Notes: generated from the sequence alone by a model not told the origin. A stretch of 32,000 nt of DNA from Nitrosopumilus sp. (GCA_965214775.1 OZ243974.1:2358632-2390631); one strand, 5' to 3'; positions 4,660-26,127 are shown, counted from the stretch's first letter. Numbers and translations: made by a program.

Positions 4660-5184
4660 ATGCTGAAATCTACTTATTGTATGTCTACTCTGTTAGAAAA
4701 GCAAATCAAAGTAAATCGCATTGTTACGACAAGCACCGAGCATGCAAGGGCAATTGAAGACCCTGCCCGTGCAAAAATTGTGGAGATTCTGTATCGGCAG
4801 GCAATGTCTGCAGATCAAATCACCAAAGCGTTAAAAAAGACAGGTTACAAAAAAGCACTGACTACTGTCCGACACCACTTGGAGATCCTCAAAGAATCTG
4901 GCCTGATTGAAGTTGTCAAAATTGAAGAATCTCGCGGAGCCATAACAAAATATTACGGCACGTCTACAAAGTTACTTGACTTTGAAACTCCGAAAGATTT
5001 CGAGTCACAGTACTCAAAAGTCATAGATAACACGTCAGCCAAAATCGAAAAAATCCTCAAGGGACTTGCCCCAAAAACATCAAAAACAAAGGGAAAGAAA
5101 TCCCCAGAATACTCCCAGTATCTGGTCATGGAAATCATGAACCGGGCCATGACAAACGTGTTTGAAAATTCGGGTAAAAAATAG
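4660..5184 (+). CDS. ArsR-family winged-helix transcriptional regulator
   Basis: AIEDPARAKIVEILYRQAMSADQITKALKKTGYKKALTTVRHHLEILKESGLIE is a typical ArsR/SmtB HTH plus wing. The C-terminal half is unassigned. Confidence 0.7.
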   Translation: MLKSTYCMSTLLEKQIKVNRIVTTSTEHARAIEDPARAKIVEILYRQAMSADQITKALKKTGYKKALTTVRHHLEILKESGLIEVVKIEESRGAITKYYGTSTKLLDFETPKDFESQYSKVIDNTSAKIEKILKGLAPKTSKTKGKKSPEYSQYLVMEIMNRAMTNVFENSGKK

Positions 5185-5221
5185 TCGTTAAACCTAAGTA
5201 TTCCATGTGTGATATTATTGC

Positions 5222-5542
5222 ATGGTACGAGTGTTTTACAGCCAGAAGACAGAGGATCTCATAGAGAAGATGACCCTGACACACTGGAGGCAGCAGGTTC
5301 AAAACGAGCTTGGCAAAGAACATCAGAGCATGTCTGATAATTGGAAAATGTGTGCAATTGGCGAGCGCATACGCATAGAAGGAAAAGACCTAGAGTCAGT
5401 CAGGGATCTGTCTCCTGAGGCGATCCAACTGGGATATGACTTTTCAATTGCCATGCAAGAAAAAGACAACCAAAAAGCACTGGAAATAATAGCAAAAATT
5501 GAACAACTACCTACAATTTGGCGTGATGAGGAACATGGATAA
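5222..5542 (+). CDS. hypothetical protein
   Basis: 106-aa ORF whose stop overlaps the start of the next gene by 8 nt, suggesting an operon. No recognisable motif. Confidence 0.4.
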   Translation: MVRVFYSQKTEDLIEKMTLTHWRQQVQNELGKEHQSMSDNWKMCAIGERIRIEGKDLESVRDLSPEAIQLGYDFSIAMQEKDNQKALEIIAKIEQLPTIWRDEEHG

Positions 5543-5939
5543 AAGAGCTGCAAAATTATTTTCTCAAAAAAACCTGGCTTTCATTGCAACTGTGATGAAA
5601 GACGGTTCCCCACAAGTATCTCCTGTTTGGGCAAATTTTGAAGGTGGTTATGTTCTGGTAAATACTGCTGAGGGGCGCATAAAACACAAAAATGTTTTAC
5701 GGGATCCTCGAGTTGCAGTTTCAGTCGTTTCAAAAGATAACCCCTTGGACATGACTACAATTCGTGGTGTCGTTGAAGAATTGATTCCTGATTATGATTA
5801 TCGACATGCAGACAAATTAACCAGACAATATATGGGATGCAAACATTATCCCTTCAAACGCGATGGTGAAAAAAGAGTCATTCTAAAAATAAAGCCTGAC
5901 AGGGTTTTTGTTTTGCCTGATCTAAAGGTGTCAGAGTAA
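5535..5939 (+). CDS. pyridoxamine 5'-phosphate oxidase (PPOX) family protein
   Basis: LAFIATVMKDGSPQVSPVW and the following beta-barrel-like pattern resemble PPOX/F420-dependent family proteins. ATG at 5535 (MDKRAAKLF). Confidence 0.7.
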   Translation: MDKRAAKLFSQKNLAFIATVMKDGSPQVSPVWANFEGGYVLVNTAEGRIKHKNVLRDPRVAVSVVSKDNPLDMTTIRGVVEELIPDYDYRHADKLTRQYMGCKHYPFKRDGEKRVILKIKPDRVFVLPDLKVSE

Positions 5940-5951
5940 GAATTTATAATA

Positions 5952-5970
5952 TTTCTAAATTCGAATTTAG
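5952..5970. repeat. palindromic motif P, copy 0 (1 mismatch)
   Basis: tttctaaattcgaatttag lies immediately after the PPOX gene stop. It resembles the four island copies of gtttctaaattcgagtttagaaac. Confidence 0.5.
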
Positions 5971-6194
5971 CAATACAATCAATTTAATGCTGGACTGGAA
6001 AAAAGACTCAAAGACAGTTTGACGTTTTGTTGCTGCCTTTTCCTTGCATGACGATGCTGTTGCCGTTGCTGCCTTTGGAAGTCATCGTGACTTTTTTTGT
6101 AAAAATATTCGGTGTTGTGGAAAAACAAGTCATATACTAGACTACTTCAACTATTGAAAAATTTGACAGTTCTTGTGGTTTTAAAATTTATCGG

Positions 6195-6716
6195 TCAACA
6201 GTTGACCAGACAAACAGAAGCTGTATCGACTGTTGACTGTTCTTTTTGCGGCCTGATCAAAATTTTGTATTGCTTGTCTTCCTCAAACTGTACATCAAAC
6301 TGTGTGGTTCTTTGTACCGGTTTGCCAGGTTCTATTTTTTCAAATAACAAGTCATTTGCATCAAATTCGCCATAGGTTGCTTCTGTTTTTTTGTTGCCGT
6401 CAATAAAGAAGAACTGTCCTCCTGAGAGATTCGTCACTTTATTGCCGATATTTTTTGCGACAATCCCAATTTTTACGAATGTCTTTTCAGGCTTGACATC
6501 CTTGTTTCCTTCAAATGTCCCTTCAAACGTGACTATGTATTCTACAGGACCCACGATGATTGGCTCTCCTGCAATACCTGTCACAAAATTAGTTTGATAT
6601 TGAGCGTACGTGTACATGGCTATTCCCATAGAACCCACTACTGCCCCTATGACAATAACAATTCCCAGATTTACCATGAAATCTGCTGGCTTTTTTGGTA
6701 TATAGTTGAAGCGCAA
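6195..6716 (-). CDS. hypothetical membrane-anchored protein (weak DUF4352-like beta-sandwich resemblance)
   Basis: 173-aa ORF with an N-terminal TM helix (LGIVIVIGAVVGSMGIAMY). The pattern FVKIGIVAKNIGNKV..GGQFFFIDGN resembles DUF4352 only loosely. Confidence 0.5.
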   Translation of the reverse strand: MRFNYIPKKPADFMVNLGIVIVIGAVVGSMGIAMYTYAQYQTNFVTGIAGEPIIVGPVEYIVTFEGTFEGNKDVKPEKTFVKIGIVAKNIGNKVTNLSGGQFFFIDGNKKTEATYGEFDANDLLFEKIEPGKPVQRTTQFDVQFEEDKQYKILIRPQKEQSTVDTASVCLVNC

Positions 6717-7002
6717 AAAAAAACGATGCTGTTCAGAATCGTAATCCTAGGGCATATTTTTTGCAGTGATCTGCACTAAATCGCACATGATGCCTGCTGA
6801 CATCGCGGACGGATCTATTTGATGCAAATTCGTTTATGCATGATCCGAATTTGTTAATTTCAAAGCAACCCTCATGTTGATAAAACGACGAATGCGCAGC
6901 AGGGACAGGAAGTTTCTGCAAAATTTTTGCCTGCAAGACGTGTTAGAGTTTGAGGATCTGGTGAGCCGTAGAAATATGTCTTGGAAGAACTTTCGGATAC
7001 GA

Positions 7003-7083
7003 GGTCACCTACCCCCATCAGCTAGGCACGGATTAGCGTGCATGATTGTGATTTTCGTGCCTAGATGGTAGGGGGACGTGACC
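7003..7083. mobile_element. MITE family A (about 80-bp hairpin element)
   Basis: ggtcacctaccccc..ctaggcacg(27 nt)cgtgcctag..gggggacgtgacc has nested inverted repeats. Related copies are at 13576, 15103 and 25030, with longer variants at 10813, 23288 and 25999. Confidence 0.7.
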
Positions 7084-7254
7084 ACATACACTTTCGGGAT
7101 TAAATCCGTGCAAACTAGAGATATGGTGATCCAAAACACGCATGATCGGATCCGAGTCGACAAATCATGCCGGTAGTGCCTGTCTGGCAACAATACACGG
7201 TTGCATCTTGACTATCTATGTGATTTTCAGCGTACCTGCAGTGTATTTTTTATC

Positions 7255-7345
7255 GTAAGAGTTTACCCCTCAGGCGACACTGCTGGCCGGAGCCTTGATC
7301 ACCGTGCCTACCACGACGTATTTTCGGGAGGGGGTAAACTCTTAC
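7255..7345. mobile_element. MITE family B (91 bp)
   Basis: Terminal inverted repeats are gtaagagtttacccc / ggggtaaactcttac. It is flanked by a perfect 9-bp duplication ttttttatc (7246-7254 and 7346-7354). Confidence 0.85.
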
Positions 7346-7394: not shown

Positions 7395-7940
7395 ATGGAT
7401 GGTGCTAACATAACTGTCTCCGGACTCGTTCAGGGCGTGGGCTTTCGATACATGACAAGACGCCTGGCAAAAAAGCATGCATTAAAGGGCAAGGTCGAGA
7501 ACCTAGAAGACGAAACGGTACGCATTGTCTGCGAGGGGAAAAAGACCAACATTGAGGGATTCGCTGATGCAATACGTCGCGCCCCGGAGCCAGTCGAGGT
7601 AGATGATATCCATATAGAATACGTAAAGCCCACCGGCATGTATCAAAATTTTACGATTGTGATGGGGGATATGCTAAAGGAGATGGTGGAGGGTCACGCC
7701 ACGGGGGCCGTGTATCTCGACTTTATACTCCAGAAACAGGATCAGATGCTGGGAAAACAGGATCAGATGCTGGGAAAACAGGATCAGATGCTGGGAAAAC
7801 AGGATCAGATGCTGGGAAAACAGGAAGAAACCATTACAGAGATACGTACGCTGTCATCGAGCATACGTAATACGATGGATTCGCGTTTTCAGAGGCTTGA
7901 GGACGAGATAATAAAGATAAAAACAAAACTTTCCATATGA
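7395..7940 (+). CDS. acylphosphatase-domain protein with C-terminal repeat/coiled-coil extension
   Basis: VSGLVQGVGFRYMTRR and KGKVENLEDETVRIVCEG match the acylphosphatase signatures. The C-terminal about 90 aa contain KQDQMLG x4 and heptad-like sequence. Confidence 0.8.
   Translation: MDGANITVSGLVQGVGFRYMTRRLAKKHALKGKVENLEDETVRIVCEGKKTNIEGFADAIRRAPEPVEVDDIHIEYVKPTGMYQNFTIVMGDMLKEMVEGHATGAVYLDFILQKQDQMLGKQDQMLGKQDQMLGKQDQMLGKQEETITEIRTLSSSIRNTMDSRFQRLEDEIIKIKTKLSI
7734..7825 (+). repeat. perfect 21-bp tandem repeat x4 plus partial unit
   Basis: aaacaggatcagatgctggga is repeated four times (7734-7817), followed by aaacagga. It encodes KQDQMLG heptads. Confidence 0.95.
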
Positions 7941-8006
7941 ACACATTCGTGAATCTTTTGTATGTCAAACCAATTCGTCGCGTCTGTCAATCTTGCCTTT
8001 TCCTGT

Positions 8007-8120
8007 CTTCCTAAAAACGACGTGGTGAATCACCTGCTCAAATCATTGCCCAAGACTGACATCGGCATGGCTGAGCAGATCGACATAATTGGTTGTATCG
8101 CGCATGATCACCTGAAGTAG
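8007..8120 (+). pseudogene. 3' remnant of a second copy of the Doc-partner gene (paralogue of 9266-9481)
   Basis: 8007-8240 is near-identical to 9368-9601. It encodes ..KNDVVNHLLKSLPKTDIGMAEQIDIIGCIAHDHLK* with no 5' half. Confidence 0.8.
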
Positions 8121-8216
8121 CAAACATGCCGGCGTCACGCTCTGATCCTGCCTAAAACTCACAAGGAATGCAAGCCGGGCTCCCATGGTAGTAATGCCGT
8201 GCAAGGCATTAAAGTT

Positions 8217-8240
8217 GTTTCTAAATTCGAGTTTAGAAAC
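8217..8240. repeat. palindromic motif P, copy 1
   Basis: gtttctaaattcgagtttagaaac has 8-bp arms and a 6-nt loop, and is followed by atggattttt. Confidence 0.8.
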
Positions 8241-8310
8241 ATGGATTTTTGACAGTGTGCTACCCAATATGCGCCTGCAACGGAAGAATAGGAGGATTCA
8301 AGACAGAGAC

Positions 8311-8424
8311 ATGGGATACACTCTCACTGGCATCACGACTGAATACGTGGCAGGAGGCTGGCGCGTTGTAAGTTTTGTGGACTCGAAACGAAAGATTGTT
8401 ATGAGTCATTTGTATAGCGCGTAA
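8311..8424 (+). CDS. possible 37-aa ORF upstream of the zinc-ribbon gene
   Basis: MGYTLTGITTEYVAGGWRVVSFVDSKRKIVMSHLYSA is preceded by aggagg and ends 2 nt before the next ATG. It is disrupted by the MITE in copy 2. No homology was recognised. Confidence 0.25.
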   Translation: MGYTLTGITTEYVAGGWRVVSFVDSKRKIVMSHLYSA

Positions 8425-8426
8425 CC

Positions 8427-8663
8427 ATGAAAAAAGAGCAGATGTTACCATCTCCGACATTGATTCCACACGCAAACGGCAGGAAAAAAATCAAAAGATG
8501 CCCGGACTGCGGCAGTGACGATCTTACGAGGATAGCCTACGGGTATATGGAAATAACCGACAAGATTGAAAGGGCCATCACACGCAAAAAAATAACGCTT
8601 GGTGGTTGTTGCGTCGAACCGTACGATTGGCAATGCAACAACTGCGGTAATTTTTTTGAGTGA
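8427..8663 (+). CDS. small zinc-ribbon protein
   Basis: 78 aa with CPDCGSDD ... GGCC ... CNNCGN (two CxxC pairs). It is duplicated at 11981-12214. Confidence 0.6.
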   Translation: MKKEQMLPSPTLIPHANGRKKIKRCPDCGSDDLTRIAYGYMEITDKIERAITRKKITLGGCCVEPYDWQCNNCGNFFE

Positions 8664-8870
8664 CGAGTAGATGCCGTTTGCGCCACTCGTGCAGTACGAT
8701 TGGCAATGCAACAACTGCGGTAATTTTTTGCCGTAGTGGAAGAACATCTTGCTGAAAACCAGTCTTGATCTGCCTAACAGTCATCATATGCTGCGCCATT
8801 ACAGGGGGGAGTTGGGCACAATCTGGAATGAACACCCATGTTAATTAGACCCAGGCTGCCCCGTACAATC

Positions 8871-9269
8871 ATGCTCACGGTGGACGATCTGATTGCCATG
8901 AACAGGAGGATAATACAGGAGTGGCTTGCAGAGCACCCAGACGGGTTTGAGGGGGTCGGCGCGAACAGATCCCTACTTGGGGACATATTGCGTGAGACCT
9001 ACCGCAAGGAGTCGCCTGTACTAATGGCCGCGCATCTGGTGGCCCATATGGCGTGGTCGCAGCCGTTCTCAGGTGCCAACAAGAGGACTGCGGTTGCAAG
9101 TGCAGCTACTTTACTTAAGACGCATGGTTATGATCTGGTCATAAAAGACAAAGACATCGAGCACATCAGAAATCTCTTGCTTGATGTTATGGGACAGCGG
9201 TCTGCCCTGAATTCAAGCGTGTATGATCAAATAATTTTATATGTATCACTACACGCAAGATCATTATGA
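8871..9269 (+). CDS. Doc/Fic-fold protein with degenerate active-site motif
   Basis: SQPFSGANKRTAVASAATLLKTHGYDL aligns to the Doc motif HxFx(D/N)(A/G)NKR, but Q replaces the His and G replaces D/N. ATG at 8871 (MLTVDDLIAMN) is preferred. Confidence 0.65.
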   Translation: MLTVDDLIAMNRRIIQEWLAEHPDGFEGVGANRSLLGDILRETYRKESPVLMAAHLVAHMAWSQPFSGANKRTAVASAATLLKTHGYDLVIKDKDIEHIRNLLLDVMGQRSALNSSVYDQIILYVSLHARSL

Positions 9270-9481
9270 GCAAGCCGGATATGCTAAGGATTGCAGAAGA
9301 GTACATGAGGGACAACAAAGAACTGTTTGATGCACTGGGTGCAGAAAAACCCATCGACACTTCACGCCTTCCCAAAAACGACGTGGTGAATCACCTGCTC
9401 AAATCATTGCCCAAGACCGACATCGGCATGGCTGAGCAGATCGACATAATTGGTCGTATCGCGCATGATCACCTGAAGTAG
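9266..9481 (+). CDS. small partner protein of the Doc-like gene (putative antitoxin-like)
   Basis: 71-aa ORF whose ATG overlaps the Doc-like stop (ATGA). The N-terminal IAEEYMRDNKELFDALG resembles the two other small ORFs next to Doc-like genes in this window. Confidence 0.5.
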   Translation: MSKPDMLRIAEEYMRDNKELFDALGAEKPIDTSRLPKNDVVNHLLKSLPKTDIGMAEQIDIIGRIAHDHLK

Positions 9482-9577
9482 CAGGACATGCCGGCGTCAC
9501 GCTCTGATCCTGCCTAAAACTCACAAGGAATGCAAGCCGGGCTCCCAAGGTAGTAATGCCGTGCAAGGCATTGAAGT

Positions 9578-9601
9578 TGTTCCTAAAATCGAGTTTAGAA
9601 A
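9578..9601. repeat. palindromic motif P, copy 2 (2 mismatches)
   Basis: gttcctaaaatcgagtttagaaac. Its left flank is identical to that of copy 1 for about 210 bp, but the right flank differs. Confidence 0.7.
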
Positions 9602-9661
9602 CATGTTATTTGGACGCTTTCATGCTATGAATAAAATACAGGAAACGACTACGCCAACGTA

Positions 9662-10694
9662 TTGCGTTTTGGGCCGAGTCTGCGGGAGCTGTACTTTTAC
9701 CTTCGAAAGTCCGTGTGTGTCACACACGGACTTGCGTCCTCGGCTAGATACTGCTATGCGACCTGGTTGCACCACCTGGTCTGCGCCGACAGGCAGGGGC
9801 TGAATAACTTCCCGGAGGCCGTGGCCGAGGTTGGGCCCGGCAGCTCGCTGGGCGTTGGACTTGCCGCGCTAATCTCTGGTTCGCATAAGTATTATAGCAA
9901 CGGGCAGAAGTCTTTGAGTCAAAGTAGGTCATAACTACGCGTAAAAAACCTCAATTATTTCTGCTCGTTGCTATATGCCCTTGACGACGTACGGCATGCG
10001 ACACGAGGCACCAATTTGAAGGTATTTGACGAGCTGGTACGACTGTTCAGGCAAAGGGCATCGATTCCGGACGGTGACGAGTTTCCGCGGTTGTCGGGGT
10101 GGCTTGACACACACGATTTTCCGGATCACATACTGGACAGAGATCGTATGCGTGATTCCCTGGAGCCGGAGCGCCTCAAGAGGATCAGGGATCTGGTGGC
10201 AGGCACGCCCGCCGGAGACGTGGGGGGGGAGACAGTTTGAGATCAGGTACGAAGTGCCGTGGTTCCGCTCCTGCATGTCAAGGGGCGCCGTAGACATGAT
10301 CTTCTCTCAAGAGGTCATGGAGCATGTGGACCGTCTGTCTGATGCATACAAGATGATGGCAAGCCTGCTCAAGCCGGGAGGGTATGCATCCCACCGGATA
10401 AATTTTGACTCCCATGATCCTGCCTCCAAAAACTGGAATGATCACTGGACGATAGGATATGTGGCATGGAGGATGCGCTGGGTCAGGCTGATCTGGATGA
10501 TAAACAGGGTGCCACTGTCCGGCCACGTGGATCTGATGAGGAGGCACGGATTCAGGATCGTATCCCTGACCCGGCACAAGGATTCAAAGGGGTCGGTCCG
10601 GCAAAGCTTACTGCGTGGCAGGTTCCGCGGCATGTCCGAAGACGACCTGACGACTCGGAGGGCAAACATACTGGCAAGATTGGAAATCCTGTGA
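9662..10694 (+). pseudogene. class I SAM-dependent methyltransferase, disrupted
   Basis: VAEVGPGSSLGVGLAALISG (motif I) lies before an 81-bp MITE-E plus TA insertion at 9895-9975 that carries stop codons. A second break sits at the G8 run 10222-10229. Downstream, VDMIFSQEVMEHV...LLKPGGY (motifs II/III) is in another frame. The true start may lie upstream (ATG 9627 is in a third frame). Confidence 0.75.
9895..9973. mobile_element. MITE family E (79 bp, derived from the IS630-like element)
   Basis: The ends tagcaacgggcagaagtctttgag... and ...cctcaattatttctgctcgttgcta match both ends of the IS at 22137-23237. TA is duplicated at 9893-9894 and 9974-9975. Confidence 0.85.
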
Positions 10695-10747
10695 GTTCGT
10701 GGATCAAGACTGTCCGACTTGATGATGCGCCACGTTTGAAAACATAT

Positions 10748-10771
10748 GTTTCTAAATTCGAGTTTAGAAAT
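10748..10771. repeat. palindromic motif P, copy 3
   Basis: gtttctaaattcgagtttagaaat. It shares the left flank tgaaaacatat with copy 4 and the right flank atggattttt with copies 1 and 4. Confidence 0.75.
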
Positions 10772-10812
10772 ATGGATTTTTAACAGCGGGCCCGGCAACC
10801 TATGCTTTGGAC

Positions 10813-10930
10813 GTAATAGGATAGCCCCTGCCTAAAGCTGGAGTACGTCCCTTGCCGGCCAGGCATGAAAATCACAACTGCAGGCAGATTCGTGCCTGAT
10901 TGCTGCCTAGGCAGGGGCTATCCTGTTACC
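10813..10930. mobile_element. MITE family A2 (118-bp long variant)
   Basis: Terminal inverted repeats are gtaataggatagcccctgcct / aggcaggggctatcctgttacc. The core caggcatgaaaatcacaactgcaggcagattcgtgcctgattg is shared with family A. A 7-bp duplication tttggac lies at 10806-10812 and 10931-10937. Confidence 0.8.
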
Positions 10931-11003
10931 TTTGGACATTGTCCTAGCTTGCCCGCAAATTATTGGTGGGGAAAACACCGCGAGACTGCTGCTGACACCT
11001 GCA

Positions 11004-11267
11004 TCATGTATCATACCGATCGTAAACTCTTGATCTTTTCTTTACTTTGAGCATGTAAAGGATCAACTTGTCATTGATCACATCCACTATTATCCTGTAT
11101 TTTCCTACCCTGTATTTGAAGAAATGAGAACTTTCAAGACGTTCGAGATATGAAAACGGATCTACTTCCACATCCCCTGTCTTCAGTAGAACCCTTTTGA
11201 TGTCGTCTTTTGGAAGCTTGTCTAGTTCTTTTCGTGCCTTGTTTGACCAGATGGCAGTCCAGGTCAT
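11004..11267 (-). CDS. relE: RelE/ParE-family toxin
   Basis: W..KARKELDKLPKDDIKRV....DPF..LE.L....FFKYRVGKYRIIVDV..DKLILYMLKVKKRSRVY is the typical RelE/StbE pattern. It overlaps the upstream antitoxin gene by 4 nt. Confidence 0.8.
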   Translation of the reverse strand: MTWTAIWSNKARKELDKLPKDDIKRVLLKTGDVEVDPFSYLERLESSHFFKYRVGKYRIIVDVINDKLILYMLKVKKRSRVYDRYDT

Positions 11268-11503
11268 AGACCGTACTTCTTCTTGAGATCTGCATTGGTG
11301 ATAAACCTGCCAGCTTTGATCTCTTTTATGGATTGTTCAATATCCTGAATGTCTTTCTCTGTAAGCAAATCAGAATCATCCTCGTACACGTATTTCAAAA
11401 TACGATTAAACATGGCCTCATATGACTCGGAGGGGTGATTTTTGAAAGAATCCCACCGCTTCTTTGATGTTTTAGAAACTTGAATTGAGGTCATTGTATC
11501 CAT
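11264..11503 (-). CDS. antitoxin partner of RelE (family not assigned)
   Basis: 79-aa acidic ORF directly upstream of, and overlapping, the RelE-like gene. Confidence 0.6.
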   Translation of the reverse strand: MDTMTSIQVSKTSKKRWDSFKNHPSESYEAMFNRILKYVYEDDSDLLTEKDIQDIEQSIKEIKAGRFITNADLKKKYGL

Positions 11504-11670
11504 GGTTGCCTATAGACGACTATAATATTTAATGCTTGTTTTGACGTCCAGCCAAGTGAAACGTGCCAAAAAATCGAGCAAAAGCAGGATATCCAACACT
11601 TTTCGGAATAGGCGAACCGTTTGAGTCCTCACATCTGCTGTAGGGGGACGTACCGCGTATGAAAACATAT

Positions 11671-11694
11671 GTTTCTAAATTCGAGTTTAGAAAC
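11671..11694. repeat. palindromic motif P, copy 4
   Basis: gtttctaaattcgagtttagaaac starts the second zinc-ribbon cassette copy. Confidence 0.8.
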
Positions 11695-11815
11695 ATGGAT
11701 TTTTGACAGTGTGCTACCCAATATGCGCCTGCAACGGAAGAATAGGAGGATTCAAGACAGAGACATGGGATTCACTCTCACTGGCATCACGACTGAATAC
11801 GTGGCAGGAGGCTGG

Positions 11816-11906
11816 GTACGAGTTTACCCCTTGGGCGTCACTGCTGTCTGGAGTCTTCATGTTCACGCCTGCCACGCCGTATCTCAGGTGAGTGGTAAAT
11901 TCCTAC
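11816..11906. mobile_element. MITE family B inserted into cassette copy 2
   Basis: gtacgagtttacccc...gtggtaaattcctac is flanked by a 9-bp duplication ggaggctgg (11807-11815 and 11907-11915). The uninterrupted site ..caggaggctggcgcg.. is present in copy 1 near 8351-8365. Confidence 0.9.
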
Positions 11907-11980
11907 GGAGGCTGGCGCGTTGTAAGTTTTGTGGACTCGAAACGAAAGATTGTTATGAGTCATTTGTATAGCGCGTAACC

Positions 11981-12214
11981 ATGAAAAAAGAGCAGATGTT
12001 ACCATCTCCGACATTGATTCCACACGCAAACGGCAGGAAAAAAATCAAAAGATGCCCGGATTGCGGCAGTGACGATCTTACGAGGATAGCCTACGGGTAT
12101 ATGGAAATAACCGACAAGATTGAAAGGGCCATCGCACGCAAAAAAATAACGCTTGGTGGTTGTTGCGTCGAACCGTACGATTGGCAATGCAACAACTGCG
12201 GTAATCGGTGGTGA
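11981..12214 (+). CDS. small zinc-ribbon protein, second copy
   Basis: 77 aa. There is one substitution (T to A) relative to 8427-8663, and the last residues differ because the sequence diverges right after ctgcggtaat. Confidence 0.6.
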   Translation: MKKEQMLPSPTLIPHANGRKKIKRCPDCGSDDLTRIAYGYMEITDKIERAIARKKITLGGCCVEPYDWQCNNCGNRW

Positions 12215-12420
12215 GGGCCCACTCCAACGGTGTGGTATATGAGACCAAACTCGGCATTGACATCACATGCATCCTGGCAAAAAGATGGAAAGGCGCAGTT
12301 CCAGTAGGCCATGTGAGGGACTTTGCAGGTGCAATTGACTCCAAAAAGGCAAAAAGGGTATGTTTGACATCACATCGGAATTTACAAATGCAAAAACTAC
12401 AGCTATGTTCAAACGTTAGA
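12208..12420 (+). pseudogene. C-terminal fragment of an Mrr-like restriction endonuclease
   Basis: GIDITCILAKRWKGAVPVGHVRDFAGAIDSKK resembles the Mrr_cat core (QxK..V....V..F.GA). The continuation KGMFDITSEFTNAKTTA is in another frame after an A-rich stretch. No N-terminal half is present. Confidence 0.45.
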
Positions 12421-13045: not shown

Positions 13046-13597
13046 ATGAAAGGTCAACCCTCCACATACTGTGAGATCGAGGCATCTATAGCATCGTCGA
13101 CGGAGAAGATACAGAGTCTGGAAAAGGGAATCAAGGAACGTGACAACATCATCAAGGAACGTGACAACATCATCAAGGAACGTGACACGACCATTGAGAA
13201 ACTAAACAATATAATCAAGGATCAGGGCAGCAGGCTCCGATACTATGAGAACGAGAACTCGCCCCCGTCGGCAGACTCGCTTGCGTGGAAGGAGCAAAAG
13301 GCACAGAGGAAAAAGGAGAGGGCCCAATACGATGCTGTAGCCGGGAATGGCGGCACCAGGAATAACAGGAAAAAGCCCGGCGGCCAAAAGGGCCACAAGG
13401 GCGTATCGCGCGTCCACCGGCCCACCCGGGTACAAAGGCACTACTTTCCGGGCGGACAGGCGCCAGAGTGCTGGTGCGGCACCCCCACGAAGATCATGAA
13501 CAGGTCGCAGACACGCGACATGATTGGATTTGAGATCAAGGCGGTTGAGACGCGCCACGAGATACAGAGGTATGCGGTCACGCCCCCTGCTGGCTAG
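13046..13597 (+). pseudogene. IS66-family transposase, N-terminal fragment
   Basis: It has a coiled-coil N-terminus, then YENENSPPSADS and KKPGGQKGHKG, then a Cys pair, as in the IS66 TnpC N-terminal region. The DDE domain is absent, and the ORF runs into a MITE-A copy. Confidence 0.65.
13130..13192 (+). repeat. 21-bp tandem repeat x3 (third unit diverged)
   Basis: atcaaggaacgtgacaacatc x2, then atcaaggaacgtgacacgacc. It encodes IKERDNI heptads. Confidence 0.9.
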
Positions 13598-13655
13598 GCA
13601 TGAAAATCATAGACATGCATGCCAACTCGTGCCTGATTGGCAGGGGTGGGTGACC
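13576..13655. mobile_element. MITE family A
   Basis: ggtcacgccccctgctggctaggcatgaaaatcat...cgtgcctgattggcaggggtgggtgacc. It truncates the IS66-like ORF and lies 24 nt upstream of the ParA-like start. Confidence 0.7.
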
Positions 13656-13679
13656 TCATGCCAAGCTACTTTGATCACA

Positions 13680-14573
13680 ATGTTAAAATTTCATATTGGC
13701 GCAACATTGGCAATTGACAAGAATCATCAGCAGATCAATCTCAAAGGCGGAGTGGGAAAAACCCAGACTGTAGTGGCCATTGCCGAATTTCTTGCCATGC
13801 AGCACAAGAAGAAAGTACTTGTAATTGATCTAGATCCGCAAACCAATGCTACCATGGCCTTGATCACGCAAGATGTTTGGAAGGACAAGAACGAGAAAGG
13901 CGAGACTATTTTTCAAATGTTCAAGGACAGGCTAGACAACACGTCAAAATTCAATATTAAAAACTCGATAATGCAAAAAGTATCCAATGTGAATGACGGC
14001 ATACCGAACTTGGATCTCTTGCCATCAAGTCTGGATCTGGTAGGAATACAGGATGAATTATCACAAATTACTACGGGTCGCTTTCATCTGTTCAGCCCAG
14101 TTATGATTCTTAAAAGATCCATCTCGCCGGTGTTGCAGGATTACGATTATGTACTCATTGACTGTCCACCAAACCTTGGAATAATAACGCTAAACGGCCT
14201 GTACATATCAGATTTTTATGTCATTCCCACCATTCCAGACATCCTTCCAACGTTTGGCATCCCACAAATAATTAGTAGGATATCGGATTTTTCAAGAGAG
14301 GGCGATTTGACAATCAATCCCTCAGGAATAATAATCTCAATGTATAGAAAGCAAAGTACCACACACAAAACCATGATGGAGTCCCTGAAAAACAGAGCAC
14401 AAAGCGGCGAATACCCCCCGGTTTATGATACGGTGATTCCTTTGACCGTAAGAACCGCAGATGCGGCGGATGTCAGTTCCGTATCGGCTACACTAAAACA
14501 AAAGTACGGCTATGTGACAATGTTTGACGTATATGACAAGCTTACAAACGAGTTTCTGGAGAGGATCCGATGA
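13680..14573 (+). CDS. ParA/Soj-family (deviant Walker A) ATPase
   Basis: NLKGGVGKTQT (KGGxxKT), VLVIDLDPQTNAT and YDYVLIDCPPNLG. ATG at 13680 is chosen because the track start at 13524 lies inside the MITE and IS66 remnant. Confidence 0.8.
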   Translation: MLKFHIGATLAIDKNHQQINLKGGVGKTQTVVAIAEFLAMQHKKKVLVIDLDPQTNATMALITQDVWKDKNEKGETIFQMFKDRLDNTSKFNIKNSIMQKVSNVNDGIPNLDLLPSSLDLVGIQDELSQITTGRFHLFSPVMILKRSISPVLQDYDYVLIDCPPNLGIITLNGLYISDFYVIPTIPDILPTFGIPQIISRISDFSREGDLTINPSGIIISMYRKQSTTHKTMMESLKNRAQSGEYPPVYDTVIPLTVRTADAADVSSVSATLKQKYGYVTMFDVYDKLTNEFLERIR

Positions 14574-14905
14574 GCCGGAATGACGAGCTGACGATTCCAG
14601 ACATCCTGCGTCTGCTGGCAGACCAGATAGAAAAAAATCCCAAACTGCTGGATCCAAAACGGAAATCGGTCAGAAAAAGGCCCGACATTGACCTGTTTGG
14701 CCTGGTATCCAAAGGAGGGGAGGATCTTTTGCGAGAAGAGCTGGAAAAACTGGACATTGACACGCTAAGGCAAATTGTGCGTACAAGGGGTTTTGATACG
14801 TCCAGACTTGCAGGAAAATGGAAAAACAAGCAAAGACTGATCGATCTAATAGTCAAAAAGACGATGTATCTGAGCACCAAGGGGGATGTGTTTCTGTATG
14901 GATGA
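14570..14905 (+). CDS. small charged protein with C-terminal HeH/SAP (Rho_N-like) motif, ParA partner
   Basis: The ATG overlaps the ParA stop (ATGA at 14570-14573). LEKLDIDTLRQIVRTRGFDTSRLAGKWKNKQRLIDLIVKK resembles the helix-extended loop-helix DNA-binding motif. The last about 10 codons may derive from the adjacent IS remnant. Confidence 0.55.
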   Translation: MSRNDELTIPDILRLLADQIEKNPKLLDPKRKSVRKRPDIDLFGLVSKGGEDLLREELEKLDIDTLRQIVRTRGFDTSRLAGKWKNKQRLIDLIVKKTMYLSTKGDVFLYG

Positions 14906-15052
14906 GCACCAGAGTGACAGTCCGTGATTCTGAAGCTCAGGCGTGGTGGTGATTATGATGATTTTGATTCGTACATCCAGCCAAGCACAAAGTATCCAAG
15001 ATTTGACGTCATGGAGTGGAGGGGGCTTGGGCTCCCTGTGGTAAACCGTCAT
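14906..15052 (-). pseudogene. IS630/Tc1-like transposase fragment
   Basis: The minus-strand translation ..WLDVRIKIIIITTTPELQNHGLSLW resembles the IS630 segment containing (Y)(S/T)PELNPxExxW. It is related to the plus-strand fragment at 24820-25026. Confidence 0.5.
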
Positions 15053-15102: not shown

Positions 15103-15263
15103 GGTCACGTCCCTTGCTAGCTAGGCACGAAGATCACAATCATTCATGCTAATTCATGCCTAACTGATGATGGTATAGCAACGAGCAGAAATAATTGAGG
15201 TTTTTTACGTGTAGTTATGACCTGCTTTGACTCAAAGACTTCTGCCCGTTGCTATAGGTGACC
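15103..15263. mobile_element. MITE family A copy split by a nested MITE-E
   Basis: ggtcacgtcccttgctagctaggcacgaagatcacaatc...ctgatgatggta [MITE-E] ggtgacc. The two halves rejoin to a normal family-A element. Confidence 0.8.
15176..15254. mobile_element. MITE family E, second copy (opposite orientation to 9895-9973)
   Basis: It is the reverse complement of the 9895-9973 copy with few differences. TA is duplicated at 15174-15175 and 15255-15256. Confidence 0.85.
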
Positions 15264-15307
15264 TCGTACGAACGTCCCGTCCGCAGCCGTTCAGCTGCCG
15301 CCACTCA

Positions 15308-16327
15308 TTAGGCCGCAGCAGCGATTCTGGCCGGCGCCCTATCGTTGACCAGTCCGCACAGGATACTGTTTGCAAGGTCGCACTTTTTGAGTGGGTTTCG
15401 GTACCGGTCGCCCATGATCCTGTATGTTTTGACCCTGCGTATGGTGTTCCCCACGTACATGCGTATCTTTGAGTGCGTGATATTGTACTCTTTTTCCGCA
15501 TCGGTGAGCTTGCCGCCCGGTTTTTTCTTGATTGGGAGTATGACTTCAGTACCTGCATCCACTGACTGTGCTCCCTGGTATCCGCGATCCATGTAGTGCC
15601 GCAGCTTTGTACTCTTTTGTTGTTGCTGCGGCGCATCACCATCCCCGCTGCCGCCGGGGCACTTTTTCTTTCTCTCTTTTTCTTTCTTTGGTCGTACCGG
15701 AACGTGGGATGCCTCATCTGGTACATCGTGATGTCGTTTACGCGTCCCGGAGAGTGGGGCGTGTCTTGTGTACCAAGTCCGTGGATGTTGGTGATATACT
15801 GAACCTTGACTGTGTGCGTGCCTGCCTTGCCTGAATAGTGCGATTTCTCCATGTCCTTTCTCTTGGGCCTGCATATCTTTTGTTCTGAGGCATCTGTCAG
15901 GCAGACAAGTTTCGGTAATACGTCCATTAGCTCCTCTACTGAGGATATTCTCTTGGTGCCCGAATAGATCTTTTCGGGGATCGACAGGCACTTTTTGAGA
16001 ACCGGCGCAATCCCGTCTATCGAGCGCGAGACTGATGCCTGTCCTATTCCGAACATGGCAGATGCCACGTCCTGCGTGACGTACGTCCTGTAGTAGAACA
16101 GGGACAATAGAAGACTCTCCTTTAGGCTGAGGGCAGTCGGACGTCCTGCACCGATGATGTCACGCTTGCGGTCTTTTTTGGCAGAAAGCAGAAAGCCTCT
16201 TTCTGTCCCTCTTTGGGTGTTTTTTTGCCACCTTTGCATACAACAAATCAAATTCGGGGGCAGTCATGCCGGCAAACATCTTCTTGAATGTCCGGGGTTT
16301 TTTTGACAATTTATCAAATAACTTCAT
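15308..16327 (-). pseudogene. DDE_Tnp_4 (IS5/Harbinger-like) transposase with at least two frameshifts
   Basis: Three frames are needed. First is MKLFDKLSKKPRTFKKMFAGMTAPEFDLLYAKV (from ATG at 16327). Second is ..GAGRPTALSLKESLLLSLFYYRTYVTQDVASAMFGIGQASVSR..LTDASEQKI..YSGKAGTHTVK. Third is ..MDRGYQG..ILPIKKKPGGKLTDAEKEYN..HSKIRMYVGNTIRRVKTYRIM (ends at 15308). Confidence 0.75.
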
Positions 16328-16380
16328 GAATTGTACATTTTACTGGCATTTGGATCGGGTTGGTGTACATTATGTGTCTG

Positions 16381-16418
16381 TTTGATCAAAATTTGCTAAT
16401 TTCGAATCAACTCTCTGA
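16381..16418. mobile_element. MITE family C, truncated left arm (inverted)
   Basis: The reverse complement cagagagttgattcgaaattagcaaattttgatcaaa matches the first about 38 nt of the copies at 17308, 19142 and 23475. Confidence 0.6.
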
Positions 16419-16816: not shown

Positions 16817-17349
16817 TGCCCAGAACCGACCTTGCCAGTGCCACCTTGCAAATTATGAAGACACTCCAAAATGGAGAGTCATACACGCTAAACAAGATAA
16901 GCAGAGAAACGGAATTGAATTTTAGAACCGTTCAAAAGGTATTCAAGCTAATAGAGGCATTCCAGGAACAGCTAGAATCAAAAAAGATCAATATAATCCG
17001 CCAGAACCACGTAATCCGCATACAAATGAAGTCAAAAAGTGGAATAACATCGATGCCAACTCCAATACAAAAAATGCTTATTCGCACATCATACTATCCA
17101 ACACCTGGCAGAAACGAGGAACTGCTTGTGTATCTGTTACAAAACAACGCAACCAAAAATTCATCTGCAATACAAATGAATTCAAACAAGCTGTTAGACG
17201 AGTTGGTTGCAGCAGAGCACGTAATCAAGAAAGGAAAAAAATATCACTTGTCTGAGATGGGTCAAATCGCCGCAAAGGGCGCAATGTCGCTTTATCCAGA
17301 ACTAGTCCAGAGAGTTGATTCGAAATTAGCAGACTCTGATTATTTGTGA
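16816..17349 (+). CDS. hypothetical protein with two winged-helix-like segments
   Basis: 177 aa. ATLQIMKTLQNGESYTLNKISRETELNFRTVQKVFKLIE and LLVYLLQNN...LLDELVAAEHVIKKGKKYHLSEMG look like wHTH units. The last 14 codons are encoded by the MITE-C copy. Confidence 0.5.
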   Translation: MPRTDLASATLQIMKTLQNGESYTLNKISRETELNFRTVQKVFKLIEAFQEQLESKKINIIRQNHVIRIQMKSKSGITSMPTPIQKMLIRTSYYPTPGRNEELLVYLLQNNATKNSSAIQMNSNKLLDELVAAEHVIKKGKKYHLSEMGQIAAKGAMSLYPELVQRVDSKLADSDYL

Positions 17350-17451
17350 GCGAATCTGCATAAAACATCTCAAAATACCAGCAAAATGCCAGGTCATCTG
17401 CGAAACCGCTTGAGAGATTCGCACGGCTTTTGATTTCGGACCACCTCTCTG
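17308..17451. mobile_element. MITE family C (144 bp)
   Basis: Terminal inverted repeats are cagagagttgattcgaaattag / ttgatttcggaccacctctctg. Related full copies are at 19142-19283 and 23475-23617 in the same orientation. Confidence 0.75.
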
Positions 17452-19092: not shown

Positions 19093-19141
19093 AATCTAAC
19101 CATGGCAGTTAGATTTTAAATTCTTTTCTCACCAACTGCCA

Positions 19142-19283
19142 CAGAGTTTATTCGAAATTAGCAGATTCTGATTATTTGTGGATGAATTTGCATAAAACGG
19201 CTCAAAACACCAGCAAAATACAAACTATCTGCGAAATCACTTGGAAAATTCGCACGACTTCTAATTTCGGATCATCTATCCTG
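19142..19283. mobile_element. MITE family C
   Basis: cagagtttattcgaaattagcagattctgattatttgtg...ctaatttcggatcatctatcctg, in the same orientation as the 17308 copy. Confidence 0.75.
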
Positions 19284-22110: not shown

Positions 22111-22136
22111 CGTAGAGCAAAAGTTCCTGAAGATTA

Positions 22137-23237
22137 TAGCAACGAGTATAAGTCTTTGAGCCAAAACAAGGTCATTCGAAAAGTATAATGATCACGTAAC
22201 TGGCGCAGTATGTATGGCAAAAGAAACAGACATCCTGTCAGAGGCCATGCGCAAAGAAAAGGATGCCAAAGTCTACAAAAAGATCATGGCGTTGATGTTT
22301 GTGTCAGAGGACGACATAGGCGTGCCCGAGGCTGCAAGGAGTCGGTGCAGTGAGAATTCCGTGCGCAACTGGCTGGCGAGGTTTTCGGAGGGCGGCATAG
22401 ACGGTCTCCGGGATCTTCCACGCTCCGGACGCAGGCCAAGGGTGGACAGAAAAAAGATTGCCGCCATAATGGATCTGTCCATTGAATACAACAGTACCGA
22501 TGTCATGACGGTACGCGATGACATAAGGAATGCCACCGGGATAGAATACAGCATAGAGCATGTCCGAAGACTGATGTGCCAGCACGGCCTGTCGCGCCGC
22601 AAGGTGCAAAACATACATGTCAACCATGCCGCCCCAAATCCGGCATACCCATGGCAGCGATACCTTGAAAACGTGCGGTTCCGCGCCTGAAAAAAGACGG
22701 TTTTACGCTGGTGTCATCTGATGAGGCATTCTTCGTGCAGGGCTCATACGACAGATGCGCATGGGATCCGGTCGGCACCAGAGGTGTGGCCTCGTATTCG
22801 GGGAACCGCACAAAGGTGGCCGTGTTTGGAAGCATCGCAGAAGACGGCAGGAGGCTGTTCGGGACGTTTACGGGATCGCTTGCGTCGGTGCAGTTCATGG
22901 AATGTCCGGGGCGCTGCGCGCCAAGTCTGGCAGGGTTGCAGTCTTTTGCGACAGGTGGAGCGTGCACAGATCTGCTGCCGTCGCAGAATATCTGGCGGGC
23001 CATCCCGACGTCAGGCTGATAATGCTCCCAAAGGGATCGCCGTACCTCAATGTCGTGGAAGAATGCTGGAACCTGGGCAAGCCTATCGTTTTCAGTGGGA
23101 TAGTGTACAGAAAGATCAGCGAATTGCGGCATGCTATATCCGAATATTACAGGACGGCGTCGCTTGCCCGCCTTTGCATGTACAGGTACATTTACAGATC
23201 GCCGGTCAAGGCCCTCAATTACTTGTGACCGTTGCTA
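22137..23237 (+). mobile_element. IS630/Tc1-mariner-like insertion sequence (1101 bp)
   Basis: The ends are tagcaacgagtataagtctttgag... and ...ccctcaattacttgtgaccgttgcta. TA is present on both sides (22135-22136 and 23238-23239). It is the parent of MITE family E. Confidence 0.85.
22214..23228 (+). pseudogene. IS630-family transposase, two frameshifts
   Basis: The HTH part occupies frame 2 (to 22690). LKKDGFTLVSSDEAFFVQ...VAVFGSI is in frame 1. ..GRVAVFCDRWSVHRS..LPKGSPYLNVVEECW (DDE_3) is in frame 3. The breaks lie near 22685 and near 22900. Confidence 0.8.
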
Positions 23238-23406: not shown

Positions 23407-23474
23407 ATGCTGCCTACTCACCAATTCCTTGTCTTTCGTAGCAACGCCTGTCGTAATAGGTTTTGTTGTTGATC

Positions 23475-25997: not shown

Positions 25998-25998
25998 A

Positions 25999-26119: not shown

Positions 26120-26127
26120 ATTTAAAG

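Follow-up and report, generated by a model that had tools for sequence, protein, structure and literature searches.

The 28-bp palindrome that recurs at the module junctions of a Nitrosopumilus sp. gene island, referred to here as M, is an ancient element of the core genome of ammonia-oxidising archaea (AOA) and is not private to the island. We tentatively read M as a dif/cer-like site of a host-encoded site-specific recombinase, and the island as an array of M-bounded modules, a reading to which we give somewhat less than an even chance. The analysis started from a 32,000-nucleotide stretch of chromosome (32 kb; the window) and was extended to related genomes and to small circular elements that carry M.

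Sequence and layout of the palindrome

M reads AT(A/G)TTTCTAAA-(T/C)TCGA(A/G)-TTTAGAAA(T/C)AT and is laid out 11-6-11, with two 11-bp inverted arms flanking a 6-bp centre; the 24-mer on which the preliminary description was based is its core. In a half-site profile of 262 host sites the arms were ATRTTTCTAAA and the centre YTCGAR, and conservation ran from -14 to -1 on either side of the centre, being lost at -15. As positions -14 to -12 had been excluded from the search pattern, the boundary at 14 bp is not a selection artefact. The inner motif TAA-ATTCGAAT-TTA (N = 8) was found in the consensus and in four window copies; the fifth, copy 2, carries TAA-AATCGAGT-TTA, which still fits TAA(N)6-8TTA, used in PMC11840125 as the most strongly conserved part of dif in archaea. 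With the centre included, many M copies are fully symmetric, and those copies therefore carry no orientation.

Copies of M in the window and the mosaic of island modules

Four identical 24-mers had been reported from the window. The exact 24-mer, GTTTCTAAATTCGAGTTTAGAAAC, was found in it only at 8217-8240 and 11671-11694, and never in 100 dinucleotide-preserving shuffles; the one placed at 9578 in fact begins at 9579 and differs at 2 positions (GTTCCTAAAATCGAG...), and the one placed at 10748 differs at 1, its last base being T. Searching with the perfect palindrome TTTCTAAATTCGAATTTAGAAA (22-mer) at up to 3 mismatches gave five copies in the 32-kb window, at 5952, 8218, 9580, 10749 and 11672, which include the fifth copy already pointed out at 5952; the other 26 kb held no further copy at this threshold.

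Copy 0 (ATA TTTCTAAATTCGAATTTAGCAA TAC; 5949-5976) lies 12 nt 3' of the stop codon of a PNPOx-family (pyridoxamine-5'-phosphate-oxidase) gene (5499-5939, + strand), the last of a conserved HTH-p103-PNPOx operon that runs into it, and within the gap between this gene and its convergent partner, the DUF4352 gene (6195-6716, - strand). The variable slot holding the island starts beyond the 5' end of the DUF4352 gene. Copies 1 to 4 (8215-8242, 9577-9604, 10746-10773 and 11669-11696, all on the + strand) are direct repeats, as their asymmetric centre reads on the + strand in 4/4 (ATCGAG in copy 2, which has 3 mismatches to the perfect 22-mer, and TTCGAG in the other three).

Copy 1 joins a truncated tail, A' (8000-8216, +), to module X (first copy, 8241-8663, +). 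A' is a truncated copy of the 3' end of a Doc-partner gene with its trailer, 94-95% identical to 9361-9578, and X consists of a short leader with T5, a 37-aa ORF (8311-8424) and, at 8427-8663, a zinc-ribbon gene of 78 aa. Copies 1 and 2 enclose a module made up of X together with a Doc/Fic toxin gene (8838-9269) and its 71-aa partner (9266-9481), both on the + strand (8838-9481), and copy 2 lies 97 nt beyond the stop of the partner gene. Between copies 2 and 3 are methyltransferase remnants (9605-10694, +), split by an 83-nt MITE-like element (9893-9975); copy 3, 54 nt past the remnant, sits inside a 62-nt unit with an A-tract on its left and T5 on its right. Between copies 3 and 4 are a ParE toxin (11004-11267) and a putative antitoxin (11264-11503), on the - strand (11004-11503), and a remnant of the final codons of a gene for an Mrr restriction endonuclease (11576-11611, +; ending ...TTTTCGGAATAG). 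Copy 4, which has perfect 11-nt arms (ATGTTTCTAAA/TTTAGAAACAT), lies 60 nt after the stop codon of this truncated tail, and window 11576-11712 matches 13733-13871 of the related locus L120, an Mrr gene end plus M site. A second copy of X follows (11697-12214, +), 99% identical to the first and carrying a 91-nt insertion (11816-11906) composed of an 82-nt MITE-like element and a 9-bp duplication, GGAGGCTGG. MITE-like elements are abundant in the window.

The combinatorial flanks that had been described were recovered. The left flanks of copies 1 and 2 match at 94-95% (8000-8253 vs 9361-9615), the right flanks of copies 1 and 4 at 99% (8216-8651 vs 11670-12205, broken in copy 4 by the 91-nt insertion), and copies 3 and 4 share the 62-nt unit at 90% (10730-10791 vs 11653-11714). 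Homology between the window copies switches at M. The suggestion that these combinations arose by exchange at the palindrome holds in part, as M-bounded structural variation is found in relatives; however, other island breakpoints are away from M (about 8000, 8651, 8687-8729, 12214/12246 and 12381-12388). The island copies also behave as gene 3'-flanking units, with the Doc-partner before copy 2, the methyltransferase before copy 3 and the Mrr remnant before copy 4, and simple duplication of M-carrying DNA therefore contributes to the mosaic as well. Neither an integrase nor any other site-specific recombinase, which the preliminary description had suggested looking for in the island, was found in the 32-kb window.

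Conservation in AOA

More than 116 M matches were found in Nitrosopumilus, Nitrosarchaeum, Nitrosotenuis, Nitrosotalea and Nitrososphaera, compared with 2 bacterial matches (chance expectation about 1), and M is unchanged in genomes of 60-61% GC (L029, L062). Among 118 genome matches, 113 fall in one syntenic neighbourhood with the same marker genes, between converging operons: the M block is flanked by an r-protein operon with tRNA-Asn and, opposite, by purC/HTH/PNPOx, both sides being transcribed towards it. There is one such neighbourhood per genome, holding 2-6 copies; the core block has two to five good ones, 0.07-4 kb apart, and their order and orientation are conserved in most Nitrosopumilaceae. 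The series of an ArsR-type HTH regulator (HTH), a 103-aa protein (p103), PNPOx, M and, converging on it, DUF4352 recurs in dozens of Nitrosopumilaceae loci. Window copy 0 is thus the orthologous conserved chromosomal M, and the TA/RM/IS island occupies a variable slot of the conserved neighbourhood, where foreign DNA accumulates.

Rearrangements at M and small circular elements

In related AOA genomes, which the preliminary description had proposed to search, segments have been inverted or lost precisely between M copies. The bioB-bioF segment between two M copies is inverted in L008/L119 compared with L014, L052, L065 and L073; in L108 a Zn-ribbon segment is inverted and one segment is missing between M copies; and insertions adjoin M in L094, L016 and L001. 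In L044 there is a tandem duplication at M copies. A CRISPR array was considered for M and rejected, as the sequence between the tandem copies after tRNA-Asn is near-identical in L044, marking a true tandem duplication, and its ends are conserved across genomes.

M is also carried, at one per genome unit, by circular virus-like elements of about 4.2 kb, whose hosts and virus- or plasmid-like nature we infer. In 41 contigs of these elements M lies between divergent starts, and in others it occupies a gap between convergent genes (L138 type) or has a tandem context; 11/40 near-complete elements have no M. No recognisable rep or integrase gene was found in the 4.2-kb elements, and no integrated form was seen, the longest contig being 8.2 kb (120 listed of 200 protein clusters) and the 80 metagenome loci being at most 6.2 kb. 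Its presence in divergent, convergent and tandem gaps argues against a promoter or terminator role for M, and this variable gap context is what a self-contained DNA site would show, unlike a terminator.

M as a candidate recombination site

We propose that M is an AOA-specific element that a protein encoded by the host would recognise at the DNA level; the likeliest partner is a site-specific recombinase, for which M would serve as an archaeal dif/cer-type site. Candidate enzymes are a XerA-type recombinase in general and, in Nitrososphaeraceae, an adjacent small serine recombinase; neither the window nor any retrieved locus showed a tyrosine recombinase signature. The island copies, as direct repeats, would bound the modules X plus Doc/partner, methyltransferase, ParDE plus Mrr tail, and X again. 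Occasional recombinase- or repeat-mediated exchange between copies could excise, duplicate, invert and re-insert modules, which may have produced the junction A'-M1-X, expected of a tandem X...A repeat, and the other flank combinations. The small circular DNAs with one M probably borrow the host enzyme, as ColE1 does with cer. A recombinase docking at M would explain the shuffling of modules around it. The stable coexistence of several copies in conserved order would, however, hardly be expected if an unregulated recombinase acted on every one.

More broadly, AOA could possess an undescribed, lineage-wide dif-like site, multicopy in a terminus-like neighbourhood, which would be a host-recombinase platform for modules and be parasitised by the 4.2-kb replicons; we consider this possible, at roughly a one-in-three level of belief. 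If so, TA, restriction and small accessory gene modules would be captured, inverted and exchanged at the M platform. The role may have passed, in Nitrososphaeraceae, to the linked serine recombinase, which would amount to an archaeal chromosomal site system based on a serine recombinase.

Alternative roles for M

The explanation that competes best, although we think it unlikely, is that M is the site of a host architectural, replication or segregation protein (SMC-stalling, domain-boundary, centromere-like or origin), that the circles copy it and that the rearrangements are by-products of short repeats. Clustering of the palindromes in one neighbourhood, retention of their sequence in GC-rich genomes and their position-independence in the rep-less 4.2-kb elements would all suit such a site, and the coexistence of several copies is natural for binding sites. 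The dif region of T. kodakarensis itself acts as an SMC boundary, which a different protein establishes (PMC11840125). However, a layout of exactly 28 bp, 11-6-11, points to a recombinase-type site. An origin in particular is disfavoured by the flanking genes, which are transcribed towards the M block, the opposite of a usual origin; moreover, no orc1/cdc6 was found within about 10 kb in L119, L120 and the window, and there is no AT-rich unwinding region.

It is improbable that a conserved transcription factor with a small local regulon uses M as its operator and that viruses have re-used M in their control region. M is palindromic, lies 49-91 nt upstream of the starts of ZnR (82-aa zinc-ribbon), p149 (149-aa DUF2299), bioB, up109 (a 109-aa protein gene adjoining bioB) and module X, and is central between the two divergent promoters of the 41 viral contigs, all of which would be expected of an operator. 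Yet the conserved copy 0 is between two convergent 3' ends, other copies are 5-16 nt past tRNA or stop codons, a BirA-type operator of its own separates bioB from M, and in L138-type elements the divergent control region has a different palindrome, with M in the convergent gap.

We also doubt the alternative offered in the preliminary description, that M with its T-run is a bidirectional terminator hairpin and that the mosaic comes only from duplicated DNA carrying it. T5 follows island copies 1, 3 and 4, which fold as hairpins (z = -1.9 to -3.2), with A-tract/hairpin/T-tract folds of -13.8 and -14.1 kcal/mol for copies 3 and 4, so a terminator side-effect is possible at these copies. Similarly, 77 of the 210 M sides facing a gene 3' end are within 20 nt of that end, and at M_a, the first copy beyond tRNA-Asn, CATTATTTTT regularly follows. 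Against this, the T-run is missing at many copies, and the RNA fold of copy 2 is no improvement over shuffles. There is no sense-strand preference (U.G vs C.A orientation 17 vs 21), and it is the base sequence rather than the pairing that is conserved, even at 60% GC, with no free compensatory change. M lies between two gene starts in most viral genomes and in the bioB/up109 and bioB/rec gaps. A plain terminator would be used genome-wide, whereas M is restricted to one neighbourhood and structural variation occurs exactly at it.

A further explanation, to which we give little credence, is that the small serine recombinase uses M for crossover, in the manner of an invertase or of integron-like cassettes, a homologue being encoded elsewhere in the genome from which the window comes. 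In Nitrososphaeraceae this resolvase/invertase-type gene (197 aa, Resolvase+HTH_7, at least 79% identity among the best 120 matches) is conserved 0.3-1.4 kb from M in 14 loci; it is outside the 2.2-kb M-flanked bioBF segment, which was seen in both orientations. The gene is nevertheless absent from the window and from all Nitrosopumilaceae and Nitrosotalea loci, though M is present in them, and the inverted state was found in only one clade, indicating that switching is infrequent. Upstream of the recombinase gene there are also conserved hix-like boxes, GTTCAAAAA(T/G)GG, which are more like invertase half-sites than M is and may be the real sites of the enzyme.

Finally, a selfish or neutral repeated palindrome (REP-/MITE-like) spreading locally would agree with the MITE-like elements that fill the window, the tandem duplications and the conserved 60-100-nt unit around the island copies that is also present in L120, but is very improbable given the few copies per genome, their confinement to one neighbourhood, their orthologous positions across orders, the strong purifying selection on the sequence and an M without terminal-repeat or target-duplication structure.

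Comparison with known systems

The analogy with integrons drawn in the preliminary description rests on a genuine likeness, a repeated imperfect palindrome 3' of each cassette in TA-rich arrays. However, the R''/L''/L'/R' boxes (GTTRRRY), extrahelical bases and length variability of attC are lacking in M, whose sequence, GTTTCTA...TAGAAAC, makes a perfect, bulge-free stem; there is no IntI, the window contains no integrase, M is a core-genome element, and the island modules carry promoters of their own and occur in both orientations. An attC identity was therefore rejected.

The Nitrososphaeraceae recombinase with the M-flanked bioBF segment resembles the architecture of Gin/gix and Cin/cix. 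As with hix/gix, an invertase-type gene is outside a segment flanked by two palindromic sites and found in both orientations, but most species have bioBF in one fixed orientation, M also occurs where there is no such recombinase, and M is longer (28 bp).

On Acinetobacter plasmids, discrete modules, often of TA or resistance genes, are bounded by 28-bp Xer-type sites (pdif) in varied combinations, and the sites alternate in orientation. The island modules are likewise discrete, bounded by 28-bp sites and variously combined; the island M copies are instead four direct repeats, chromosomal and beside a conserved chromosomal site.

The circular elements recall cer/psi and the attP of IMEX, in which small circles lacking an integrase or resolvase carry one copy of a host site (concept in PMC5357621), although integrated copies and accessory sequences were not found for the M-bearing elements.

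Compared with known dif sites, M has several copies per neighbourhood rather than one, its centre is often palindromic, its Xer partner is putative and there is little base identity: against P. abyssi dif, ATTGGATATAA TCGGCC TTATATCTAAA (PMC2958812), the arms are identical at 4/11 and 3/11 positions (7/22). The likeness is in the layout and setting. The dif site consists of 11-bp inverted repeats with a 6-bp spacer (PMC2958812, PMC8371274), and M is 28 bp with 11-bp arms, a 6-bp centre and a TAA...TTA inner motif, its arms being almost perfectly symmetric as in Thermococcales dif. The T. kodakarensis dif is between convergent genes (PMC11840125), and M, too, is intergenic between convergent genes and lineage-conserved, with no tyrosine recombinase gene adjacent (PMC2958812, PMC11840125, PMC5357621).

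Copies of the palindrome in the window

The preliminary description had quoted one 24-mer at four sites. It is exact at 8217 and 11671, whereas the site at 10748 carries one mismatch and the remaining one, which begins at 9579 and not at 9578, carries two; shuffled sequence gave zero matches. At up to three mismatches, the perfect palindrome TTTCTAAATTCGAATTTAGAAA has five copies in the window (5952, 8218, 9580, 10749 and 11672), with no further copy across the remaining 26 kb. These mark the five copies of a 28-bp site, here called M: copy 0 (5949-5976) and, inside the island of TA/RM/IS-type genes, copies 1 to 4 (8215-8242, 9577-9604, 10746-10773 and 11669-11696). Copies 1 to 4 are identically oriented, as judged from an asymmetric centre on the + strand (TTCGAG in copies 1, 3 and 4, ATCGAG in copy 2).

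The mosaic flanks that had been described were borne out by self-comparison of the window. The left flanks of copies 1 and 2 (8000-8253 and 9361-9615) are 94-95% identical, the segments 8216-8651 and 11670-12205 are 99% identical outside an insertion of 91 nt, which comes with a 9-bp target duplication, and a 62-nt unit is common to copies 3 and 4 (90% identity). Some island breakpoints lie away from M. There is a 43-nt partial duplication of the zinc-ribbon gene 3' end (8614-8656 and 8687-8729), just downstream of the first copy of cassette X (a 37-aa ORF and a 78-aa zinc-ribbon gene; 8241-8663 and 11697-12214), and no palindrome is associated with its breakpoint.

According to Pfam assignments, purC, an ArsR-type regulator, a 106-aa protein and a PNPOx-family gene run into copy 0 on the + strand, and a convergent DUF4352 gene comes next after it. 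The island carries three Doc/Fic toxins, ParE and AbiE, together with methyltransferase and Mrr remnants, a ParA-like gene, a helicase, DDE transposases and many MITE-like repeats. Rfam at gathering thresholds left the window empty and gave tRNA-Asn only in nine related loci. One 82-nt MITE-like element, with terminal inverted repeats GAGTTTACCCC.../...GGTAAACTC, is found at 11816-11906, 7259-7345 and 23783-23869; the insertion at 11816-11906 is recent, as it splits the 37-aa ORF of the second copy of cassette X and is bordered by the 9-bp duplication GGAGGCTGG. At least five more families of short inverted-repeat elements are present, at 10813-10929, 23288-23405 and 26007-26120; at 9893-9975 (inside the methyltransferase remnants), 15174-15256 and 22133-22165; at 6998-7088; at 17307-17448, 19139-19280 and 23474-23617; and at 25081-25213 and 25865-26002. 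In-frame 21-bp tandem (heptad) repeats lie within the C-terminal extension of an acylphosphatase-domain protein (7734-7838) and in a 183-aa protein upstream of the ParA-like gene (13109-13234).

The ParA-like ATPase gene and a 111-aa gene (13577-15014) are 97% identical in nucleotides to positions 17776-19213 of L120, a locus from a 3.2-Mb relative whose core genes are just about 68-72% identical to those of the window, a disparity that points to island DNA having been horizontally transferred recently. The DDE transposase region (15276-16417) is also 95% identical to L120, which contains the single homologue of the zinc-ribbon cassette that was found, without M before it.

Conservation and chromosomal context of the site

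M is not confined to the island. One genome per prokaryotic species (596 Gb) was scanned for the exact pattern, of which about one match would be expected by chance on our estimate. At least 118 loci were returned; among those listed, 116 belong to ammonia-oxidising archaea (AOA), with every major genus represented, and two are bacterial. The perfect palindrome is the commonest form (107 sites among the matches listed), followed by the TTCGAG/CTCGAA and CTCGAG variants. In a half-site profile of 262 sites, conservation extends to exactly 14 bp on each side of the centre and is gone at -15, and it includes positions -14 to -12 (A.77, T.97, R.94), which were not part of the search pattern. M is therefore a 28-bp, 11-6-11 palindrome with the consensus AT(A/G)TTTCTAAA-(T/C)TCGA(A/G)-TTTAGAAA(T/C)AT. 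Its sequence is unaltered in genomes of 60-61% GC (L029, L062), a constancy that argues for base-specific recognition and against mere hairpin potential.

When marker proteins were mapped onto the loci, 113 of the 118 listed proved to share one syntenic region, the exceptions being the two bacterial matches and three loci whose stored 8-kb block has the site at its edge. The order in Nitrosopumilaceae, with > and < for the direction of transcription, is rpl6> p95> tRNA-Asn> M_a (about 48 nt) M_b ZnR> memb> M p149> (variable, 0.3-3.5 kb) DUF4352> M <PNPOx <p103 <HTH. Here M_a is the copy that comes first past tRNA-Asn and M_b the next one, ZnR is an 82-aa zinc-ribbon protein, memb an 83-aa membrane protein, PNPOx of the pyridoxamine-5'-phosphate-oxidase family and HTH an ArsR-type regulator, while p95, p103 and p149 (with DUF2299) are unnamed and labelled by length in aa. 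Copy 0, which lies 12 nt past the stop codon, is the ortholog of the PNPOx-side site, and the island fills the variable slot; its segment 12705-12894 matches sequence out of that slot in L059, L051 and L087. Both parts of the block are contiguous in Nitrosotalea (L112). In Nitrososphaeraceae, about 7 kb separate the M region from the ribosomal-protein operon at its rpl6 end, with a degenerate M after the 119-aa gene adjoining rpl6. There bioB-bioF lies between two copies; this unit is bordered on one side by a CdvB-like gene and a 109-aa gene, and on the other by the genes for a serine recombinase, bioA and bioD.

The housekeeping operons on both sides point towards the block. M could be an architectural, origin or partition site; this is unlikely, and as a replication origin it was rejected, given that orc1/cdc6 was not found within about 10 kb in L119, L120 or the window and the flanking operons run inwards. 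The origin of N. maritimus was reportedly mapped by Pelve et al. in 2013.

M mostly lies 5-45 nt past a 3' end (5-8 nt for tRNA-Asn, 5 nt for bioF, 12-16 nt for PNPOx), and, in the window, T5 follows copies 1, 3 and 4, of which copies 3 and 4 fold as an A-tract, hairpin and T-tract (-13.8 and -14.1 kcal/mol, z about -3), as a terminator would. However, copy 2 folds no better than shuffles, and U.G versus C.A variants are not biased towards the sense strand (17 vs 21), a balance that argues against selection on an RNA hairpin. We consider a terminator improbable. A strongly conserved leader of ~90 nt runs from the second site to the TTG start of the 82-aa zinc-ribbon gene in about 60 loci (1373-1463 in L075). 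It contains a hairpin (CTATTAGA...TCTAATAG), likewise conserved, and the ribosome-binding site GGAGG; it is possibly a regulatory RNA or promoter region.

Small circular elements carrying the site

Scanning IMG/VR for the site gave 47 contigs, each of 4.08-4.75 kb, and paired matches about 4.1-4.3 kb apart indicate circular genomes. These belong to a virus-like family from marine metagenomes (L121-L167 from IMG/VR, L168-L247 from metagenomes; for example L129 1-4236 and L138 1-4303), which is not described in the searchable literature. Metagenomes scanned with one element protein gave 80 loci, none above 6.2 kb; among the 40 of these contigs that reach 4 kb, 29 have exactly one M per unit. The source contigs of the best 120 of 200 homologous protein clusters were all at most 8.2 kb, and integrated proviruses of the family were not found.

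The genes encode 84-88-aa hydrophobic, 121-, 127- and 240-290-aa, K/R-rich 68-87-aa, 71-78-aa zinc-ribbon and 66-70-aa ribbon-helix-helix-like proteins. None matched a Pfam or PHROG family of known function, neither a rep nor an integrase is recognisable, and host block proteins showed no similarity to viral proteins. As the elements encode no recognisable recombinase or replication protein, M is probably read by a host protein.

In 41 contigs M is centred between two divergent gene starts, each 30-32 nt away; in the L138 type it lies in a convergent gap, 47 and 44 nt past two stop codons, the divergent control region having a different palindrome, and in L123 and L127 its context is tandem. 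These divergent, convergent and tandem settings suggest that M is self-contained and functions independently of promoters or transcript ends. On the chromosome it also lies between divergent starts, at bioB/up109 and bioB/recombinase, where a transcription-factor operator might be placed; we think such a role has little probability. It is not the biotin operator, because bioB has its own BirA-type operator, TGTAAAC-N17-GTTCACA, between M and the gene. A general AOA promoter consensus drawn from the loci was uninformative, since they are orthologous copies of a few genes.

Rearrangements bounded by the site

Structural variation at the motif was sought in related genomes and was seen. The bioB-bioF segment is inverted in L008, L048 and L119 relative to L014, L052, L065, L073 and others, with unaltered outside flanks, and bioB-side and bioF-side sequences meet M in both states. 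A single M-M inversion together with a single M-M deletion would turn the canonical order into that of L108, tRNA-Asn> M <ZnR M <PNPOx. In L044, three copies lie in tandem, and the 49-nt sequences between them are near-identical; duplicated, not unique, spacers of this kind exclude a CRISPR-like array. Extra genes or a 5.3-kb element are inserted beside M in L016, L001 and L094. In L120, M units follow an intact Mrr gene and a small zinc-finger ORF, and the left flank of window copy 4 is a remnant of an L120-type Mrr gene end. Such rearrangements are rare, and most genomes keep the canonical order.

The 5.3-kb insertion (L094 1162-6503; Nitrosarchaeum sp. LAS73) lies between tRNA-Asn and the conserved site, with just a degenerate half-site left next to the tRNA. 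Its genes include a Cas1-like one on the minus strand (4683-5768) and a small nuclease-like one, but none of the ORFs of at least 60 aa is a polymerase gene. A casposon link was rejected, as neither the target nor the terminal sequences published for family 1 are related to M (PMC8464041).

A 197-aa Resolvase+HTH_7 protein (catalytic YLRVSTEEQ) is encoded 0.3-1.4 kb from M in 14 Nitrososphaeraceae loci and has more than 1,200 homologues, the best 120 all at least 79% identical. M could be its crossover site; however, the gene is found neither in the Nitrosopumilaceae or Nitrosotalea loci nor in the window, and this is a doubtful reading. The ~300-nt conserved stretch upstream of the gene (L008 4700-4994, L119 9700-10000 and homologues) has inverted GTTCAAAAA(T/G)GG boxes that look like Hin/Gin invertase half-sites, and given these boxes the protein is only a candidate for acting on M. 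That M is a selfish repeat is very improbable.

Discussion

The best explanation, which we hold tentatively and at somewhat less than even probability, is that M is a dif/cer-like site of a putative recombinase. This is suggested by the exact 28-bp 11-6-11 layout with TAA...TTA; by conservation across the lineage in one neighbourhood between converging operons; by the adjacent hotspot for foreign DNA and the rearrangements bounded by copies of M; and by the single M on small circular replicons without a recognisable recombinase gene. The idea of a recombination site is thus partly supported, but not the idea that M is owned by the island. The analogy with integron attC sites is unsupported, as the window holds neither a tyrosine nor a serine recombinase by Pfam, and a tyrosine-recombinase signature scan of all loci gave no match.

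As a dif/cer-like site, M would make the island an array of M-bounded modules. The junction of A' (8000-8216, the truncated 3' end and trailer of the Doc-partner gene), copy 1 and cassette X could then be the leftover of a tandem repeat of the module running from X to the Doc-partner, the first copy having been truncated later at about 8000.

Several points weaken the dif/cer-like reading: the window lacks a recombinase, several good copies coexist stably in the core block, integrated 4.2-kb elements were not found and island breakpoints occur off M. There is an appreciable probability that M has a partner protein of another kind. As an Xer/dif-type site with module arrays, M would be novel; no description of it was found in full-text literature on its sequence or on thaumarchaeal palindromes, origins, promoters, dif or XerA, no thaumarchaeal dif site is described in the searchable literature, and M is absent from the published survey of thaumarchaeal integrated elements.

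If correct, this reading would for the first time open a way into how one of Earth's most abundant archaeal groups resolves chromosome dimers or organises its terminus, and would supply a simple 28-bp marker to locate that region in any AOA genome or MAG. It would also explain an integration and variation hotspot of AOA genomes and connect a family of tiny, uncharacterised circular replicons from the sea to a host.

Known dif sites differ from M in having low identity to it, which counts against the comparison, as do the symmetric centres of many copies. The combination of features listed first in this discussion is known for dif itself, and for the cer and attP sites by which replicons make use of the Xer recombinases of their hosts (PMC2958812, PMC5357621, PMC8371274, PMC11840125).
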